From IMG/VR virus record IMGVR_UViG_2877285697_000005: 14,720 bases of DNA; one strand, 5' to 3'. Position 1 is the stretch's first letter. Each line of letters opens with the position of its first letter. Positions 7,182 through 14,720 of the stretch are shown here, piece after piece. The DNA is from a virus (taxonomy: Duplodnaviria; Heunggongvirae; Uroviricota; Caudoviricetes). Position numbers and translations under genes: made by a program. The notes under the pieces were generated by a model. The model did not search any database and was not told where the DNA came from. It saw nothing but the letters and a program-made list of their open reading frames with translations.

Positions 7182-8339
7182 ATGCCGAGAATAATCGAAT
7201 TACGCCAGCAGAAAACCGCCATTAAAAATCAGATGCGCGACATGCTGGAGAACGCGGAAAAAGAAAACCGCAGTCTTAACGATGCTGAGGGCGCAAAATT
7301 TGACGAATTACGCGCTAAAGCTGAATCCCTCGATAAAGACATTTCCCGCCTTGAAGCCATTGCAGACGAAGAGCGCAGCAAGCCAGGTAAAAGCAGCCAG
7401 ACCACTGACCCGGCAGAACTCCGCAACTACATCCTGACAGGTGAAACCCGCGCATTAAGTACAGGCGTTCCCGCTGATGGTGGTTATACCGTTATCCCCG
7501 AACTGAACACCGAAATCATGCGAATGCTGACGGATGAATCCACCATGCGCCGCATCTGTACCGTGAAGAAAATCAGCAGCAACGAGTTTAAGCAGCTTGT
7601 TTCCGCTGGCGGTGCGACCGTTAACCACGGTGAAGAGGGTAAGACACGCGAACAGACCAGCACCCCGCAGATTAACGAGGTGAGCATTAAGCTGTATCCG
7701 GTCTATGCGTACCCGCGCACCACACAGGAAATCGTGGATTTTTCCGATGTGGACATCCTTTCATGGCTGACGGGTGAGATTGGCGACACCTTCACGGAAA
7801 CCGAAGAAAGCGATCTGGTTGTGGGCGACGGTGACAAAAAAGCAAAAGGCTTTTTATCCGTACCCCGTGCAGAGAAGAACGACAAAGAGCGTGATTTTGG
7901 TACGTTACAGGTAATTAAACCTTCCGAATCTCTGGCGTGGACATCTGCTGACCCGCTGATCGACCTGAAATTTGCATTACGTAAAAAATACCGCAAAAAC
8001 GCGGTCTGGGTGGTTAACTCCACGACGGCGGCAAAACTTCAGAAGGTGAAGAACGCGAACGGTGATTACATCTGGCGCGACCGTTTACAGGCGGGTGATC
8101 CTGATACGTTGCTGGGCCTTCCGGTCGAATATCTGGAGTTTATGCCTGATAACGTTATTGCCCTGGGTGACTTCAAACGCGGTTACTACATTGTTGATCA
8201 CGAAACAGGTGTTCGCACCAGACCGGACAACCTCACAGAGCCGGGCTTCATCAAAATTTTCACGCAGAAATATTTAGGCGGTGGCGTGGTGGATTCGAAC
8301 GCGATCAAGATTCTGGAACTGCCACAGGACGACGATTAA
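7182..8339 (+). CDS. Major capsid protein, HK97 family
   Basis: 385-aa ORF. N-terminal coiled-coil delta/scaffold-like region (ELRQQKTAIKNQMRDMLENAEKE...), then a body typical of HK97-fold capsid proteins. Gene order and size consistent. Confidence 0.85.
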   Translation: MPRIIELRQQKTAIKNQMRDMLENAEKENRSLNDAEGAKFDELRAKAESLDKDISRLEAIADEERSKPGKSSQTTDPAELRNYILTGETRALSTGVPADGGYTVIPELNTEIMRMLTDESTMRRICTVKKISSNEFKQLVSAGGATVNHGEEGKTREQTSTPQINEVSIKLYPVYAYPRTTQEIVDFSDVDILSWLTGEIGDTFTETEESDLVVGDGDKKAKGFLSVPRAEKNDKERDFGTLQVIKPSESLAWTSADPLIDLKFALRKKYRKNAVWVVNSTTAAKLQKVKNANGDYIWRDRLQAGDPDTLLGLPVEYLEFMPDNVIALGDFKRGYYIVDHETGVRTRPDNLTEPGFIKIFTQKYLGGGVVDSNAIKILELPQDDD

Positions 8340-8350
8340 CAGCATACAGA

Positions 8351-8378
8351 AGGGGCTTAAAAGCCCCTTTAGTGTTTT
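8351..8378 (+). terminator. Hairpin plus T-rich tract after the capsid gene (candidate partial terminator)
   Basis: AGGGGCTT (8351-8358), AAGCCCCT (8361-8368), then TTT AGTGTTTT. Confidence 0.4.
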
Positions 8379-8951
8379 ATGGGTGAAAAAATTATGAAGA
8401 GTATGGAAATCCGGTCATCGGAAATCACCACCAGCGCCAGCAACACGCTTACAGGCTACGTTGTTCGCTGGGATAAGCTTTCAGAACTGCTATGGGGGGA
8501 GTTTTACGAAAAATTCCAGCGGGGGGCGTTTACTGAGTGGCTTGCGGCGGGTAATGACGTTCGCGGCCTGTATGAGCATGACCACAGCATGTTACTGGGG
8601 CGCACCCGTTCCGGCACGCTGAAACTGGAAGAGGACGAAACAGGGTTACGCTTTGAACTGACCCCACCGGATACCAGTACAGGGCGCGACGTTATCGAAC
8701 TGGTTAAGCGTGGGGACATCTCGGGGATGAGCTTTGGCTTTCGCTCCCGTAAGGATGTATGGGATACCACAACAGATCCATGCGTGCGCACCGTGCTGGT
8801 GGCGGAACTGTACGAAATTACCGTTACATCGGTACCGGCTTACCCCGATTCCTGCGTGGAGCTGGCCCGCCGTTCCCTGTATGAGCAGCACCCCGAAAAA
8901 ATGCCGCGTGCGGATAATCGCCGCTGGTGGGCGGATTTAGCGGGGGTGTGA
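8379..8951 (+). CDS. Prohead maturation protease, HK97 family (S78-like)
   Basis: 190-aa ORF. Motifs GYVVRWDKLSEL, HDHSMLLGRT and GDISGMSFGF match the HK97 prohead protease pattern with catalytic His and Ser. The start may instead be ATG 8394. Confidence 0.85.
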   Translation: MGEKIMKSMEIRSSEITTSASNTLTGYVVRWDKLSELLWGEFYEKFQRGAFTEWLAAGNDVRGLYEHDHSMLLGRTRSGTLKLEEDETGLRFELTPPDTSTGRDVIELVKRGDISGMSFGFRSRKDVWDTTTDPCVRTVLVAELYEITVTSVPAYPDSCVELARRSLYEQHPEKMPRADNRRWWADLAGV

Positions 8952-8952
8952 T

Positions 8953-10164
8953 ATGTGGCCTTTCAGAAGAAAAAAAGAGCAGCGCAGCATGACGCTTGAT
9001 GAGTTTATGGCGCTGGCTGGCACATCGAACACGGGGGCGGGTGAGTACGTATCATCGGGGACAGCGGAATCACTGCCCGCCGTCATGAACGCCGTGACGG
9101 TCATCTCTGAGGCGGTGACTACCATGCCGTGTTACCTGTACCTGGTACGCAATGAGAAGGGGAAGGAGGCCCGAGAGTGGCTTGATTCTCATCCGGTCGA
9201 TCACATCCTCAACGAGCGCCCGAACGCATGGCAAACCCCCTACCAGTTTAAGCGAATGATGATCCGCCACTGCCTGTTAAACGGTAATGCTTATGCGGTG
9301 ATTCAGTGGGGGCGTGATGGTTTTCCGGTCGCTTTGCATCCTTACCCGCCGCAGTCGGTGAACGTTGAGCAGACAGGTGAGCATAACTGGCGCTACTGCA
9401 TCACTGACGCCTACACCGGAAACACCCGCAACTATTTACCGTGGGAGGTTCTCCACCTTCGTTACTCCACGGATGACGGTTTTATGGGGCGCTCACCTGT
9501 AACCATCTGCCGCGAATCGCTGGGGCTTGGGCTGGCCCAACAACGCCACGGCGCGAGCGTGATGCGTGATGGCATGATGGCGGCAGGGGTTATCACGTCA
9601 GGCGAATGGCTGGACGGCGTGAAGGGCAAACAGGCATTAGCCGCACTGGAACGCTACAAAGGGGCCAGAAACGCCGGAAAAACGCCCATCCTTGAAGGGG
9701 GTATGAGCTATCAGCAGCTGGGCATGAGTAATCAGGATGCTGAATGGCTGGCCTCCCGTCGCTTCACCATTGAAGACATCGCCCGAATGTTCAACGTCTC
9801 GCCGATTTTTTTGCAGGAATACAGCAACAGCACCTACAGCAATTTCAGCGAGGCAAGCCGCGCATTTCTCACCATGACGATGCGCCCGTGGCTGGCGAAC
9901 TTTGAGCAGCAGATAAAAAACGCCCTGCTGGTGGCCTCGCCTGTACCTGGTATCCGGTATCAGGTGGAGTTTGACAGCGCGGACCTGTTACGGGCCACAC
10001 CTGGCGAACGCTTTGCCACCTATGAACGCGGCATCAAATCCGGCGTTATGTGCCCGAACGAAGCCCGCGAACGTGAAGGGCTGTCCCCGCGTGATGGTGG
10101 TGATGAGTTCAGCCAGGCATGGAAACAGGAAGTAAAAATCAGCGAGGGAGAAAAACCGGAATGA
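8953..10164 (+). CDS. Portal protein, HK97 family
   Basis: 403-aa ORF immediately after the protease with GGGGGTG Shine-Dalgarno. Size and position typical of HK97-type portals. Confidence 0.8.
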   Translation: MWPFRRKKEQRSMTLDEFMALAGTSNTGAGEYVSSGTAESLPAVMNAVTVISEAVTTMPCYLYLVRNEKGKEAREWLDSHPVDHILNERPNAWQTPYQFKRMMIRHCLLNGNAYAVIQWGRDGFPVALHPYPPQSVNVEQTGEHNWRYCITDAYTGNTRNYLPWEVLHLRYSTDDGFMGRSPVTICRESLGLGLAQQRHGASVMRDGMMAAGVITSGEWLDGVKGKQALAALERYKGARNAGKTPILEGGMSYQQLGMSNQDAEWLASRRFTIEDIARMFNVSPIFLQEYSNSTYSNFSEASRAFLTMTMRPWLANFEQQIKNALLVASPVPGIRYQVEFDSADLLRATPGERFATYERGIKSGVMCPNEAREREGLSPRDGGDEFSQAWKQEVKISEGEKPE

Positions 10165-10499
10165 ACATAGGGCGACTGCGTGACAGGGTAACGATTCAGA
10201 CCCTGAAACAGACCAGAGCCATGACGGGCGAAATACTCGAAACGTGGGTGGACGGTCACACACTCTGGGCAAGCGTGAACATGATCAGCAGCAAGGAGGC
10301 CATTTCATCGGGTGCAGAACTGGCGACTGGAACGGTAAGGGTATGGATACGCTACAGGAAGGACATCAACGCCACCAGCCGGATAAAGGTCAATACGGGG
10401 CCGCTGGCGGGGCGTGTACTGAATATCATCGGGCAGCCGCTGCCGGATGCCGCCAGGACACGCCTTGAAATTCTTTGTCGTGAGGGCGCGGAAAAATGA
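10161..10499 (+). CDS. Head-tail adaptor / head closure protein
   Basis: 112-aa ORF from ATG 10161, overlapping the portal stop (ATGA). LRDRVTIQ ... LWASV ... VRVWIRYR pattern resembles head-tail joining proteins. The track start at 10119 lies inside the portal gene and is rejected. Confidence 0.6.
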   Translation: MNIGRLRDRVTIQTLKQTRAMTGEILETWVDGHTLWASVNMISSKEAISSGAELATGTVRVWIRYRKDINATSRIKVNTGPLAGRVLNIIGQPLPDAARTRLEILCREGAEK

Positions 10500-10792
10500 C
10501 AGAAGAACTTATCACCCTGGAAGAAGTGAAACTCCATTGCCGCATCGATGGCGACGAGGAAGACCAGTTAATCAGCGGATACATTGCCGCATCGCTTGAG
10601 GCGTGCCAGATACACATAGGCAGGCGCTTTGATGACGGGCTGGAGTTCACGCCAGCCATAAAGATTGGCTGCATGATGTTTATCGCTCACCTGTATGAAA
10701 ATCGCCAGATTGTCGCGGATAACGCAAAAACACGCGTACCCATGACGATTGGTGCACTCTGGACGGCTTACCGTGATGTGGGGGTGTACTGA
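10496..10792 (+). CDS. Head-tail connector protein, gp6-like
   Basis: 98-aa ORF, ATGA-coupled to the previous gene. N-terminus ITLEEVKLHCRIDGDEEDQLISGYIAAS matches the characteristic start of gp6-like connector proteins. Confidence 0.6.
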   Translation: MTEELITLEEVKLHCRIDGDEEDQLISGYIAASLEACQIHIGRRFDDGLEFTPAIKIGCMMFIAHLYENRQIVADNAKTRVPMTIGALWTAYRDVGVY

Positions 10793-11232
10793 TGCCGTGG
10801 CAACCATTAAGACGATGCACAGAACCAGGCTGTAACAGGCGCGTGAAGTCCGGCAAGTGTGAGGAGCACAGGCGGGCGGCATGGCGTGCAGAGGATGCCA
10901 GACGAGGACACCGCCGCGCGCGTGGGTACTCCAGACAGTGGGACAAATACCGCGCCATGTATCTGAGTAAAAACCCGTTATGCGTGCGATGCCTTGAGAA
11001 GGGGATATATACGCCCGCCGTGGTGGTGGATCACATTATCCCCATCGATGGCGGTGATGATGTTCTCTTCTGGCCCGAATGGAACCATCAACCATTGTGT
11101 CAGGCGTGCCATAACCAGAAAACGAAATGGCTTGATCCGGCAACAAAAAGCAAGCGTGCCGCAGGTGGATTTCGTGAAGAGGAAGAACGGGCCGCTAACC
11201 GCAATAACTGGATGTATGACGCTGATGAATGA
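10792..11232 (+). CDS. HNH endonuclease, terminase-associated
   Basis: 146-aa ORF with paired Cys (C-x2-C) and the DHIIP ... N ... CQACHNQKT HNH motif. Located just upstream of terS/terL as in HK97-like cos phages. Confidence 0.85.
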   Translation: MPWQPLRRCTEPGCNRRVKSGKCEEHRRAAWRAEDARRGHRRARGYSRQWDKYRAMYLSKNPLCVRCLEKGIYTPAVVVDHIIPIDGGDDVLFWPEWNHQPLCQACHNQKTKWLDPATKSKRAAGGFREEEERAANRNNWMYDADE

Positions 11233-11398
11233 GCGGGAACAAAACCGCCTTATCCGTGGACTGATAAGGCAGCGTGACGCATGGAAGACACAGGAAACAG
11301 GGCATAAAGATAAAGCGTCAGGACGCGCAGAACGCATCACAGCGAAGCGATTAACCGACCGTGACCGCGAGGTTATGGAATGTTTCCGCAATCGCTGA
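11225..11398 (+). CDS. Hypothetical small protein between HNH and terS
   Basis: 57-aa ORF from ATG 11225 (alternative ATG 11216), overlapping the HNH stop. Arg/Lys-rich. No family recognised. Confidence 0.4.
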   Translation: MNEREQNRLIRGLIRQRDAWKTQETGHKDKASGRAERITAKRLTDRDREVMECFRNR

Positions 11399-11410
11399 TG
11401 AGGCTGTATG

Positions 11411-11453
11411 ACGGGGTGGGGGGCGTTTTCAGGACAAACCCGACCCCGCCGGG
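11411..11453. other. GC-rich imperfect inverted repeat upstream of terS, candidate cos region
   Basis: ACGGGGTGGGGGG (11411-11423) and CGACCCCGCCGGG (11441-11453) contain complementary CGGGGT/ACCCCG arms. Position between HNH and terS is where HK97-like phages carry cos. Not demonstrable from sequence alone. Confidence 0.25.
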
Positions 11454-11521
11454 CACCGAACGCCTCCTCAAATTTTTATGCACGGGAATTTTTTGAAAAA
11501 TAATCTGGCGAAAAAATAAGT

Positions 11522-11878
11522 ATGGCAAGACCACCGAAAGCCCCCGCCTACCTGGATGACATCGCCGTGAAGCAGTGGCGGGAAAAATCGCGGCAGCTTG
11601 CGGAACGGGGAGACCTGACCCCCGCCGACTGGAGCAATCTGGAACTGTATTGTGTCAACTACTCCATTTACCGGAAAGCCGTTGCAGACCTTGCGGCGCG
11701 CGGGTTCAGCATTGTTAACAGTCAGGGCGGCGAGAGCAGAAACCCCACATTAAGCGCAAAATCCGACGCTGAAAGGGTGATGATAAAAATGGCCTCCTTG
11801 CTCGGTTTTGACCCGATAAGCCGCCGTAAAAATCCACCGGAAACAGAAGAAGAGGACGAGCTTGACCGCCTGGAATAA
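11522..11878 (+). CDS. terS: Terminase small subunit, P27 family
   Basis: 118-aa ORF. MARPPKAP...W......L...G.L...D...L..YC ... NP ... LGFDP.SRRK matches the P27-family small terminase pattern. Confidence 0.8.
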   Translation: MARPPKAPAYLDDIAVKQWREKSRQLAERGDLTPADWSNLELYCVNYSIYRKAVADLAARGFSIVNSQGGESRNPTLSAKSDAERVMIKMASLLGFDPISRRKNPPETEEEDELDRLE

Positions 11879-13523
11879 GTACGCAGAAGACGTAAAAACG
11901 GGCAAAATTCCGGCCTGTAAACGGCTGAAACAGGCCGTTAAACGGTACTTTTCGGACCTTGAAAGCCCCCTTTACACGTTCGATCGTGAGGTTGTGGAGC
12001 GGTTTATTGCCTTTTCCAGGGTGTGCCCGCACGTAAAAGGGCCGATGCGTGGCAGACCCATTGAGCTGGAGCCGTGGCAGCAGTTCGCCTTTGCGTGCAT
12101 CCTCGGCTTTAAGGTTAAGTCCACCGGACGGCGCAAATACACGAGCGTCTTTATCGAAGTGCCGCGCAAAAATGCGAAATCCACGACCGCCGCGATTCTG
12201 GCTAACTGGTTTCTGATTATGGAGAACGGTCAGCAGGATATTTACACCGCAGCGGTGAGCCGTGACCAGGCGCGGATCGTCTTTGATGATGCGCGTCAGA
12301 TGTGCCTTTTATCCCGACCGTTACGCAGGCGGGTGAATATTCAGGCGCATAAGGTGATACACCCGAAAAGCAACAGCCTGTTAAAGCCGCTGGCAGCAAA
12401 AGCGGCAACCATCGAGGGAACAAACCCCAGCCTTTCCATCGTGGACGAATACCACTTGCACCCCGATAACGGCGTTTATTCCGCGCTTGAGCTGGGGATG
12501 GGCGCACGTCCCGAAGGGCTGTTATTTGCTATTACCACATCAGGCAGTAACGTCGTTTCAGCCTGTAAGCAGCACTATGATTATTGCTGCCAGATCCTGG
12601 ACGGCGAAGAGGTCAACGATTCAATTTTTGTACTGATTTACGAACTGGACGACGAAAACGAGGTTGATGATCCGGCGATGTGGATAAAGGCGAACCCTAA
12701 TATTGATGTTTCCGTGGATCGTGAAAAACTGGCCTCAACCATCCAGAAAGCGCGGGGTATTCCGTCGCAGTGGGTGGAGATGATGACAAAGCGATTTAAT
12801 ATCTGGTGTCAGGGGACTACCCCGTGGATGGGTAACGGCGCATGGGCTGAGTGTGCCGGAACGTTCACGGAGGAAGATTTACACGGCCAGGAGTGTTACG
12901 CGGGGCTGGATTTATCATCCACAAGCGATATTTCCAGCGTGTGCTATGCCTTTCCGGTCGGTAAAACCATTATGCTGGTTTCCCGTCATTATCTGCCGGA
13001 GTTCCAGCTACAGAACCCCGCCAATAAAAACCGCGCTGTCTATCGTCAGTGGGCTAAAGCAGGCTGGATACGCACAACGCCTGGCGACTGCATTGATTAC
13101 GACCGGATCAGAGATGACGTCATGCAGGACGCGGAGAATTTCAATATCAGGCTGGTGGGCTTTGATACGTGGAACGCCACGCATCTCAGGACGCAATTAC
13201 AGGGGGCAGGTTTTGAGGTGGAGCCGTTCCCGCAAACCTACCTCAGATTCAGTCCGGCGGCGAAATCGTTCGAAGTTTTTGTTAACCGCAGGGTGATTGT
13301 GCATCGTGGCGATCCGGTGTTGTCCTGGTCGATGAGTAACGTCGTGATGCAGAGTGACGCGAACGCCAATATCAAGCCGAACAAGAAAAAATCACCGAAC
13401 AAGATAGACCCGAGCGTGGCGGCGCTGATGGCGTTTGGTACATTCCAGGCAGAGCATGAGGATTTTGCTTTTGATATAAGCGACAGCCACCGCCAGAAAC
13501 TGGAAGAATTTAGCGGGGTGTAA
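11862..13523 (+). CDS. terL: Terminase large subunit
   Basis: 553-aa ORF overlapping the terS 3-prime end. Divergent Walker A-like VPRKNAKST and a C-terminal nuclease-like region. Size typical of TerL. Confidence 0.85.
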   Translation: MTAWNKYAEDVKTGKIPACKRLKQAVKRYFSDLESPLYTFDREVVERFIAFSRVCPHVKGPMRGRPIELEPWQQFAFACILGFKVKSTGRRKYTSVFIEVPRKNAKSTTAAILANWFLIMENGQQDIYTAAVSRDQARIVFDDARQMCLLSRPLRRRVNIQAHKVIHPKSNSLLKPLAAKAATIEGTNPSLSIVDEYHLHPDNGVYSALELGMGARPEGLLFAITTSGSNVVSACKQHYDYCCQILDGEEVNDSIFVLIYELDDENEVDDPAMWIKANPNIDVSVDREKLASTIQKARGIPSQWVEMMTKRFNIWCQGTTPWMGNGAWAECAGTFTEEDLHGQECYAGLDLSSTSDISSVCYAFPVGKTIMLVSRHYLPEFQLQNPANKNRAVYRQWAKAGWIRTTPGDCIDYDRIRDDVMQDAENFNIRLVGFDTWNATHLRTQLQGAGFEVEPFPQTYLRFSPAAKSFEVFVNRRVIVHRGDPVLSWSMSNVVMQSDANANIKPNKKKSPNKIDPSVAALMAFGTFQAEHEDFAFDISDSHRQKLEEFSGV

Positions 13524-13536
13524 TGAGGTCAGCAGC

Positions 13537-13818
13537 ATGACAGAAGCCGAAATAACGGGATTAATCCGCCGCGTTGCCGGAATCAGCCAGCAGGCTGACG
13601 AACAGGCCACGCAGCCGGACAGCGTGACAGCCGAAAACTATGCGCGTGTTGTTGCTGAGGTGATGCGCCGTGATGGTATAGAACTTAATGGCGTGGATAT
13701 GCGCAACATACGAACCAGAGTTCTTGAGTTGCTGGCCTACCGTCGCCGCGTGGAGATGTATCGGGAGAAGGAGAAAATAACGTACCACTGGAAGAAGCCG
13801 GAGCGGTTGCGGCGGTAA
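13537..13818 (+). CDS. Hypothetical protein downstream of terL
   Basis: 93-aa ORF, helical and charged. No family recognised. Last gene before the palindrome-rich right arm. Confidence 0.45.
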   Translation: MTEAEITGLIRRVAGISQQADEQATQPDSVTAENYARVVAEVMRRDGIELNGVDMRNIRTRVLELLAYRRRVEMYREKEKITYHWKKPERLRR

Positions 13819-13873
13819 CTGGTTGATATTCCCGACGGACCAAAAATGGGTGGCTACATCCCTCGCTTCTGAG

Positions 13874-14376
13874 GACTGTTAACAAGCTGCCTGAAAGACA
13901 GTCACAAACTACGAAATTTTCGCAGTTTAATTAATGATCAGCTTAATCGCTAACCCGCTGATATTTTCGGAAACCTCAATTTGAGGAAGTCGGCGCGGTA
14001 ACTCGCTGAACTTTAAGCAAAGCGCAAAATTGCGCTTGCTGAATAATCATTATGATTACGCAGATGATTAAGGAATGACCGAAGGCGGAAATTCGCCTGT
14101 GGTTAATGGGGGAGTTGCAGATCTGCAACTCGACCATGAAACTACGGAAACTACCCGTAGTTTGGGTAGTAAGAGTAACACCCAGATTTTGGGGCTTACT
14201 CGTGATACCCAAATTTGGGGTATCAGTGGCAACCATAACGACTTTCGTTACGGTTGATGCTTTTACCCCATTGGGGGAAAGGTATTACGATAATCATAAC
14301 ACCTACCGAACAGGTAAAGCCCACCAGCCTGATTAACGTTTAACCGGAAAAAAATTCCGGTAGGTGGGGATCCCCA
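13874..14376. repeat. Non-coding right arm densely packed with inverted repeats and perfect palindromes
   Basis: GACTGT/ACAGTC (13874-13903); CCTCAATTTGAGG (13974-13986); AGCGCAA-AA-TTGCGCT (14021-14036); 18-bp perfect palindrome AGTTGCAGATCTGCAACT (14113-14130); overlapping alternative stems AAACTACGG/CCGTAGTTT and CTACCC/GGGTAG (14139-14169); CCCAGATTTTGGGG (14181-14194) and CCCAAATTTGGGG (14208-14220); CCGGAAAAAAATTCCGG (14344-14360); TGGGGATCCCCA (14365-14376). Confidence 0.6.
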
Positions 14377-14451
14377 TATCGACATTAACGCCCCTCATGA
14401 ATTGGTGCGCTTCCCCCTGGAAAGATGATCCGCCTGTATATTTCTTGTGTC

Positions 14452-14509
14452 TATTTGTTCCACGTTGTTTCATACAGTGCACCGAACGGTGTAGTCACTG
14501 GTGTAGTCA
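14452..14509. repeat. Repeat block near the right junction
   Basis: TATTTGTTCCACGTTGTT (14452-14469) shares the 15-mer TTGTTCCACGTTGTT with 6952-6966. Tandem GGTGTAGTCA at 14488-14497 and 14500-14509. Confidence 0.5.
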
Positions 14510-14555
14510 TTTTGCGATTTTTGGCACTTTTTGCGGTGAAAATTATTTAATTAAA

Positions 14556-14720
14556 TCAACGTGTTATGTGAAATAAGTTATATATAACAGCAATAAATAA
14601 TGCGAGAATAAACGGCACGATGATCTCGGCGGCAAAACGGATACCGCAGAGAATAATGACCAGCATTCCCAACATAATGACGATTTTTAGGCCATTGAGC
14701 GTGATGATCGGCTTTGCCAT
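14556..14720 (-). pseudogene. tqsA: Truncated 5-prime fragment of a host inner-membrane transporter gene, probably tqsA (ydgG)
   Basis: The minus strand from 14720 reads [46 protein letters not shown], which matches my recollection of the E. coli TqsA N-terminus. It then diverges (YNLFHITR) and stops after 54 codons. Identity rests on recalled sequence, no search run. Confidence 0.45.

Follow-up and report, generated by a model that had tools for sequence, protein, structure and literature searches.

The right end of this DNA raises the question of whether a mobile element has split a host gene and, if so, which element, at which base and with what consequence for the protein. The window, that is, the whole stretch of 14,720 nucleotides that was analysed, ends on the start codon of a minus-strand open reading frame. 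A preliminary description had likened the beginning of this frame to the AI-2 exporter TqsA. It had proposed that an island entered a protein-coding gene rather than a tRNA, that export of the quorum signal is probably inactivated, and that tandem repeats nearby could be integrase arm sites.

A tqsA gene divided between the two ends of a satellite

The frame at the right end starts with the ATG at the window's last base and stops with the TGA at 14556..14558 (Table 1). Its residues 1-46 are identical (46/46) to TqsA of the island-free E. coli strain 7A, after which it reads YNLFHITR, encoded by the island, and then stops. The likeness to TqsA followed by divergence, as described beforehand, is thus borne out, while its extent is 46 residues and not the approximately 47 that had been estimated. 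At the nucleotide level the host-derived portion comprises tqsA codons 1-45 and 2 nt of codon 46, and is 100% identical (137/137 nt) to the tqsA start in thousands of island-free genomes. The similarity ends sharply, the first mismatch to the empty site, walking back from the window end, being 14583, and within the window there is no other host DNA. In the RefSeq annotation of PCN033 and O26 RM10386 the equivalent fragment is a pseudogene, 'pheromone autoinducer 2 transporter, missing C-terminus'. The alternative that the 54-codon frame is a complete, unrelated small gene resembling TqsA by chance has a negligible probability. It is refuted by the 137/137 nt identity and by the other 907 nt of tqsA, which sit at the opposite end of the island; the chromosomal context is also the same, with ydgV and mdtJI downstream.

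The window begins at the start codon of int and so does not reach the left junction. This junction is seen in a public contig (L005) that codes for exactly the window's integrase, has 0 mismatches to window 1..5218 and extends into the chromosome. Its chromosomal part, upstream of int, holds pntA, pntB and a truncated AI-2E transporter gene, which is the 3' part of tqsA, separated from int by 187 bp. The same arrangement is annotated in PCN033 and O26 RM10386, where the order is pntB, tqsA 3' pseudogene, int, island, tqsA 5' pseudogene, ydgV, mdtJI, and where RefSeq labels the 3' piece 'missing N-terminus' and the 5' piece 'missing C-terminus', both as pseudogenes. In island-free strains the order is pntB, tqsA, ydgV, mdtJI. 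The halves of tqsA therefore flank the island, and the insertion lies within a protein-coding gene and not at a tRNA, as had been proposed. It is confirmed that the satellite entered tqsA by site-specific recombination, splitting the gene after codon 46.

The gene content identifies the element. At its left end stands an integrase with an N-terminal arm-binding domain and a tyrosine-recombinase catalytic domain, a combination expected of the heterobivalent lambda/P4 class; its alignment contains the HDIRR and GH...RVY motifs, and RefSeq sets its start 12 nt further upstream than the frame in the window. An AlpA-family regulator follows. AlpA is the master activator of PICIs and has an excisionase-type HTH. 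Further on there are a replication module and the element's own HK97-type head and packaging module, while tail and lysis genes are found neither in the window nor in the RefSeq annotation of close relatives. The full length of 14,779 bp falls within the size of about 10-15 kb of the capsid-forming PICIs (cf-PICIs). All residues of the capsid protein (385/385) agree with PDB 9GYI, which is the capsid of EcCIEDL933, the prototype capsid-forming PICI (depositors' preprint, bioRxiv 10.1101/2025.02.11.637232). The genes also stand in the order that has been published for this family. On this basis the element is classed as a capsid-forming PICI of the EcCIEDL933 type, integrated into the chromosome.

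Three variants of this island have identical junctions and lengths of 14,779 (window), 15,303 (PCN033) and 14,878 bp (O26), and the PCN033 and O26 islands differ from the window in the replication module. Among the complete RefSeq E. coli genomes none carries an element identical to the window, the best match being 98.5%. The closest relatives of the satellite are found in Shiga-toxin-producing strains of the O26, O111 and O157 groups.

Table 1. Features of the satellite, its junctions and the sister elements. Coordinates refer to the window unless a locus is named; strand is + or -, or a point where none applies.
Feature	Coordinates	Strand	Remarks
Element left end (attL core + 187 bp P' arm)	-195..0		outside the window; from L005
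Integrated satellite body	1..14583	+	full element 14,779 bp
Tyrosine integrase, N-terminal arm-binding domain	1..1218	+	Pfam Arm-DNA-bind_3 1.4e-18, Phage_integrase 1.1e-16
AlpA-family regulator	1573..1761	+	Pfam Phage_AlpA 5.4e-17
DUF4222 protein (replication module)	3278..3577	+	
D5-type primase/helicase (replication module)	3559..5391	+	
SSB	5847..6257	+	annotation transferred from L003
PerC-family transcriptional activator	6268..6540	+	Pfam PerC 2.7e-44; annotation transferred from L003
HK97-type capsid	7182..8339	+	
Prohead protease	8379..8951	+	
Portal	8953..10164	+	
Head closure	10161..10499	+	
Head-tail connector	10496..10792	+	
HNH	10792..11232	+	
TerS	11522..11878	+	
TerL	11862..13523	+	
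Conserved 93-aa hypothetical gene	13537..13818	+	no Pfam match
P-arm block of ~59 bp, repeated imperfectly in P' arm	14451..14509	+	from alignment of the arms
Tandem GGTGTAGTCA-CT-GGTGTAGTCA, candidate arm-type sites, P arm	14488..14509	+	75-96 bp from core
Truncated tqsA ORF	14556..14720	-	54 codons: TqsA residues 1-46 + 8 island residues + TGA stop
Host-derived DNA, chromosomal side of attR	14584..14720	-	first 137 nt of tqsA
attR core, 9-bp block ATAACAGCA	14584..14592	.	identical in attL, attR and attB
Inferred 7-bp overlap AACAGCA	14586..14592	.	intersection of tqsA and sister identity blocks
Sister element loci	L004 6280..7494 and 16980..17300; L007 2760..4215		

Some parts of the satellite deserve separate mention. 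A 379-aa open frame at 1819..2958 (+) is without a Pfam match, and an exact look-up of it found nothing on record; in this region gene callers and RefSeq place small Icd-like genes and an opposite-strand gene of the YlcI/YnfO family (2262..2567, -), and relatives have pseudogene fragments there. At the other end, the 93-aa gene stands last among the genes of several E. coli satellites that otherwise differ, and in every case a block of hairpins directly follows it. In the window this block (14097..14270) contains four to five dense hairpins and lies between the last gene and the P arm. Folded as RNA, the + strand is predicted to reach -88.5 kcal/mol (z = -8.9) and the - strand -78.3 kcal/mol (z = -8.4); across five copies 3 pairs are compensated, and the most divergent copy breaks 7 pairs. 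Among the 5,426 E. coli genomes, 1,122 have parts of the block, located at the right ends of diverse satellites inserted at diverse att sites; neither the block nor the right-end non-coding region has a match in 50,697 phage records. No Rfam family reaches its gathering score in the window, with chance-level hits only in 13800..14620, and a scan of 13500..14720 gave no more promoters and terminators than shuffled sequence. In E. coli strain EC190486 (L010 2097..3536) a satellite right end, with the conserved small gene and a divergent hairpin block, adjoins an abortive-infection gene and then prophage head genes, which points to a satellite lodged within a prophage, like the helper-embedded PICIs of PMC10111431.

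Cores, arms and a sister integrase with another target

The alignment with the island-free locus, which the preliminary description had recommended, defines a 9-bp direct repeat, ATAACAGCA. In empty-site coordinates the match to the chromosome at the left junction runs up to 2509 and that at the right junction starts from 2501, so that 9 bp are common. A short identity block duplicated at attL and attR and present in the empty site is the pattern typical of tyrosine integrases. The core corresponds to tqsA nt 129..137, in codons 43-46. The attL copy lies outside the window at coordinate -195..-187, from which the length of the element follows.

A sister group of satellites helps to narrow down the point of exchange. 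These elements occupy a site between roxA and phoQ in E. coli strain 132 and Shigella flexneri SFBU1023 (L004 and L007 in Table 1, respectively), and their integrases are 89-91% identical to that of the window. Their P' arm is nearly identical to the one described here up to the core, where it switches abruptly, and their P arm is about 90% identical. Their core is GGACATATTT, unlike the tqsA-type ATAACAGCA, and was confirmed by the predicted empty site, which was found as a contiguous 100% match; 4,822 genomes, in which the site is empty, cover at least 80% of it, and in about 600 genomes it is not contiguous. Counted from the common P' arm, the tqsA block occupies -9..-1 and the sister block -7..+3, leaving an intersection of 7 bp. 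If both integrase types cut equally far from the common P' arm, strand exchange is likely to take place within these 7 bp, AACAGCA. The sister target is harmless, since its overlap with phoQ is confined to the stop codon and the gene is preserved, whereas tqsA is split by the element of the window. The strain 132 element carries a lambda-like capsid and decoration gene and a RepA helicase, without portal and TerL. A wholly genuine N-terminus of its integrase was rejected, the first ~13 residues being distorted by an adjacent IS3. In a scan for the integrase with one genome per species, covering close relatives only, a single locus was found, a Shigella flexneri pseudogene at roxA-phoQ; the scan thus gave no indication that the tqsA site is used in species other than E. 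coli. The tqsA-type and phoQ-type integrases form a natural pair for studying how an integrase changes its choice of target.

The arms of the attachment site contain the tandem repeats noticed beforehand. Exact copies of GGTGTAGTCA occur twice in the window, at 14488..14497 and 14500..14509, with a 12-bp period. With one mismatch allowed there are 3 matches against 0.54 expected, a number reached by 3 of 200 shuffles and thus modestly unusual. The case for a non-random motif comes from the tandem layout and from its recurrence at the opposite end of the island. An identical pair, oriented like that of the P arm, is found in the P' arm shortly before int, at 137 and 149 bp from the attL core, in three island variants (L005, L001 and L003). 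The longer block of ~59 bp that is shared by both arms reads TTGTTyCACGTTGT ... GTGCAmCGAwC and ends in the tandem 10-mers. In the sister elements the tandem 10-mer takes the form GGTGTAGT(T/C)A, most copies being GGTGTAGTTA, with one C-to-T change.

The presence of the pair on both attP arms, together with the arm-binding domain of the integrase, renders the arm-site reading proposed in the preliminary description plausible, and the tandem GGTGTAGTCA pairs may be regarded as putative arm-type integrase sites. It could also be imagined that the pairs bind AlpA, an excision factor or a host bending protein, or that they are a role-free part of the duplicated 59-bp segment. The location of the 10-mers inside a longer block repeated in both arms speaks for such an explanation, as does the position of the P' copy 28-49 bp ahead of the first codon of int, a suitable place for a regulator of that gene. 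Arm sites, in turn, usually take the form of short tandem repeats in both arms, some 75-160 bp away from the core, the integrase has an arm-binding domain, and the C-to-T change of the sister 10-mer accompanies about 13 substitutions in that domain, the IS3-distorted N-terminus set aside. The arm region is ~90% conserved between the sister elements, and conservation of the 10-mer is therefore not specific evidence. On balance a role other than arm binding appears rather doubtful, and the reading as arm-type sites is preferred.

The P' arm also harbours an annotated frame. RefSeq lists a 60-aa 'hypothetical protein', WP_001332680.1 (L001 2996..3178, -), opposite int and at about -181..1 in window coordinates. 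The frame extends over the entire P' arm with its tandem 10-mers as far as the TGA TAA next to the core, and is unlikely to be a genuine gene.

The fate of TqsA and the question of a switch

The attP site of the satellite does not provide any substitute for the lost 5' end of tqsA. At attL, the island contributes an in-frame TGA TAA directly before TqsA residue 44, and within the 3' part Met54 provides the earliest in-frame ATG; at attR, the tqsA frame continues for 8 codons into the island and then stops. Against the Pfam AI-2E_transport profile (cut-off 34.3 bits), the intact protein scores 268.8 bits, the Met54 product, which is the longest possible 3' product, 235.5 and the 54-aa fragment 14. 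In the cryo-EM structure of TqsA (7NB6) helix H1 comprises Thr7-Phe29 and H2 Ala31-Trp57, and the H1 helices of five protomers make the main cytoplasmic contact and bear the Met19 filter (PMC9475539). A break after residue 46 thus falls within H2 and separates the pentamer-holding H1 from the rest of the protein, so that the function of TqsA has very likely been lost by the insertion. The absence of a restoring fragment, the two stops at attL and the cut helix together argue strongly for the probable inactivation suggested at the outset. Deletion of tqsA leads to higher intracellular AI-2, biofilm formation and motility (Herzberg et al. 2006, summarised in PMC9475539).

Survival of the function, through a truncated protein started at Met54 or through the assembly of the 54-aa and 291-aa pieces, would find some footing in the 3' part, which retains AI-2E profile positions 43-326 at 235.5 bits and in which one automatic gene caller predicted a 291-aa frame from Met54, and in the native promoter and start codon that are still on the 5' fragment. 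The 3' part is, however, without promoter and ribosome-binding site and is preceded by two stops, while H1, with its pentamer contact and Met19 filter, would be absent or no longer connected and the break falls in the middle of H2. A functional TqsA in these strains is thus very unlikely.

A 220-bp probe centred on the core was used to survey 5,426 complete E. coli genomes. The tqsA site is contiguous in 5,170 of them and about 253 are without a contiguous site, and 233 of the latter (about 4% of all genomes) bear the attR junction of the island. The possibility that an intact tqsA lies elsewhere had been raised beforehand as an objection; no genome has more than 2 probe matches, and the split genomes are therefore without a spare intact copy. 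One hit (H56), in which the 220-bp site is spread over 428 bp, was considered as an excision scar and rejected, since it is a 208-bp tandem duplication off the core. It represents an independent inactivation of tqsA, in E. coli strain 2 HS-C (L008 401..828), where the gene is annotated as frameshifted.

When the two halves are rejoined in silico across one core, a 1,035-nt frame results that encodes a 344-aa TqsA with 0 amino-acid changes. The rebuilt gene of the window island has 11 nucleotide differences from the K-12-type gene, all synonymous; for the O26 island the rebuilt protein is identical and for PCN033 it has one substitution. Decay is thus absent in either half, which is also what a recent insertion predicts.

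Taken together, we are highly confident in the overall explanation, according to which an EcCIEDL933-type cf-PICI was integrated by its tyrosine integrase into tqsA and disrupts the gene. In the proposed course of events, the integrase would recombine the attP of the satellite with an attB in tqsA codons 43-46, its N-terminal domain presumably binding the tandem GGTGTAGTCA pairs on both arms to build the recombination complex. AlpA-dependent induction by a helper phage may later lead to precise excision, by which an intact tqsA would be rebuilt.

Such reversibility invites the speculation that the gene is subject to regulated gene integrity, with the satellite as a switch: its excision would restore tqsA, and AI-2 export, biofilm formation and motility would depend on whether it is integrated. 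A conserved domain is disrupted and attP brings no restoration, which corresponds to the definition in PMC7192596, and three variants in different strain backgrounds share the same junctions, presumably through independent events. In Mageeney et al. 2020 (PMC7192596) tqsA is among 19 new candidates, with disruption of the domain by a tight integrase clade. Interrupted and intact alleles coexist (233 vs 5,170 genomes), and the undecayed halves rejoin to a perfect frame, although recent insertions predict undecayed halves equally well. Induction of PICIs normally goes together with lysis by the helper phage, and the cell would then rarely profit from a repaired tqsA. Excision has not been tied to any phenotype or physiological signal, and Bobay et al. 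2013 (PMC3603311) take such poorly populated disruptive sites to be likely secondary sites. A regulatory switch is therefore considered unlikely. If it did exist, integration would silence tqsA and should raise intracellular AI-2, biofilm formation and motility. Less likely again is the combined proposal that the satellite is a reversible switch of AI-2 export, with non-lytic excision in a fraction of the population, and that its integrase was recently retargeted from the harmless phoQ-end integrase. Were the retargeting to be true, specificity would reside in a handful of substitutions outside the catalytic domain. The simple disruption of tqsA by an integrated cf-PICI remains the preferred explanation.

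Comparison with known elements

Disruption of tqsA by mobile elements is already published. In Bobay et al. 2013 (PMC3603311), tqsA is among the conserved E. coli genes disrupted by integrated phage-like elements, and Mageeney et al. 2020 (PMC7192596) present it as a new regulated-gene-integrity candidate. The latter describe the TIGER-mapped E. coli islands Eco33.11.tqsA, Eco557.15.tqsA and Eco282.16.tqsA, of 11, 15 and 16 kb, in which the UPF0118 domain is disrupted. Given these publications of 2013 and 2020, the present finding is correct but not new. What is added here is a map of the att sites at the level of single bases, the absence of a restoring fragment, a structural reading of the break point, the identity of the element as an EcCIEDL933-type cf-PICI, indirect support for the putative arm sites and a closely related integrase with a harmless target. 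Of these, the satellite type, the arm motif and the 7-bp overlap are not described in the available text of PMC7192596 or PMC3603311. The tqsA attachment site is not named by Fillol-Salom 2018, and the cf-PICI family is credited with six E. coli attB sites.

The finding matters wherever tqsA is treated as a core gene or quorum-sensing phenotypes are compared across strains. The gene is split by the satellite in about 4% of complete E. coli genomes, including Shiga-toxin-producing O26, O111 and O157 strains, and, if TqsA is lost, such strains may differ in AI-2 handling, biofilm formation and motility.

With EcCIEDL933 the satellite shares int, alpA, primase, capsid, protease, portal, connectors, HNH, TerS and TerL, as well as the absence of tail and lysis genes; it differs in length, with 14.8 kb here against the 15.5 kb reported there. 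Induction by a helper phage via AlpA, and packaging into small capsids that are joined to helper tails, have been demonstrated by experiment for EcCIEDL933 only (bioRxiv 10.1101/2022.09.08.507074). In comparison with the TIGER islands, made at the level of genes, the target gene, the size class of 11-16 kb and the disruption of AI-2E/UPF0118 without restoration are alike, and the Pfam comparison made here (268.8 vs 235.5 bits) points in the same direction as the published domain disruption. A further parallel exists with the Listeria comK prophage and the mlrA, hlb and sigK elements (PMC7192596). In those systems excision is tied to a known physiological programme, whereas no such programme is known for tqsA. 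The architecture is the same, in that the elements are inserted site-specifically into a conserved coding region without a restoring fragment, and in both cases precise excision would rebuild the gene.
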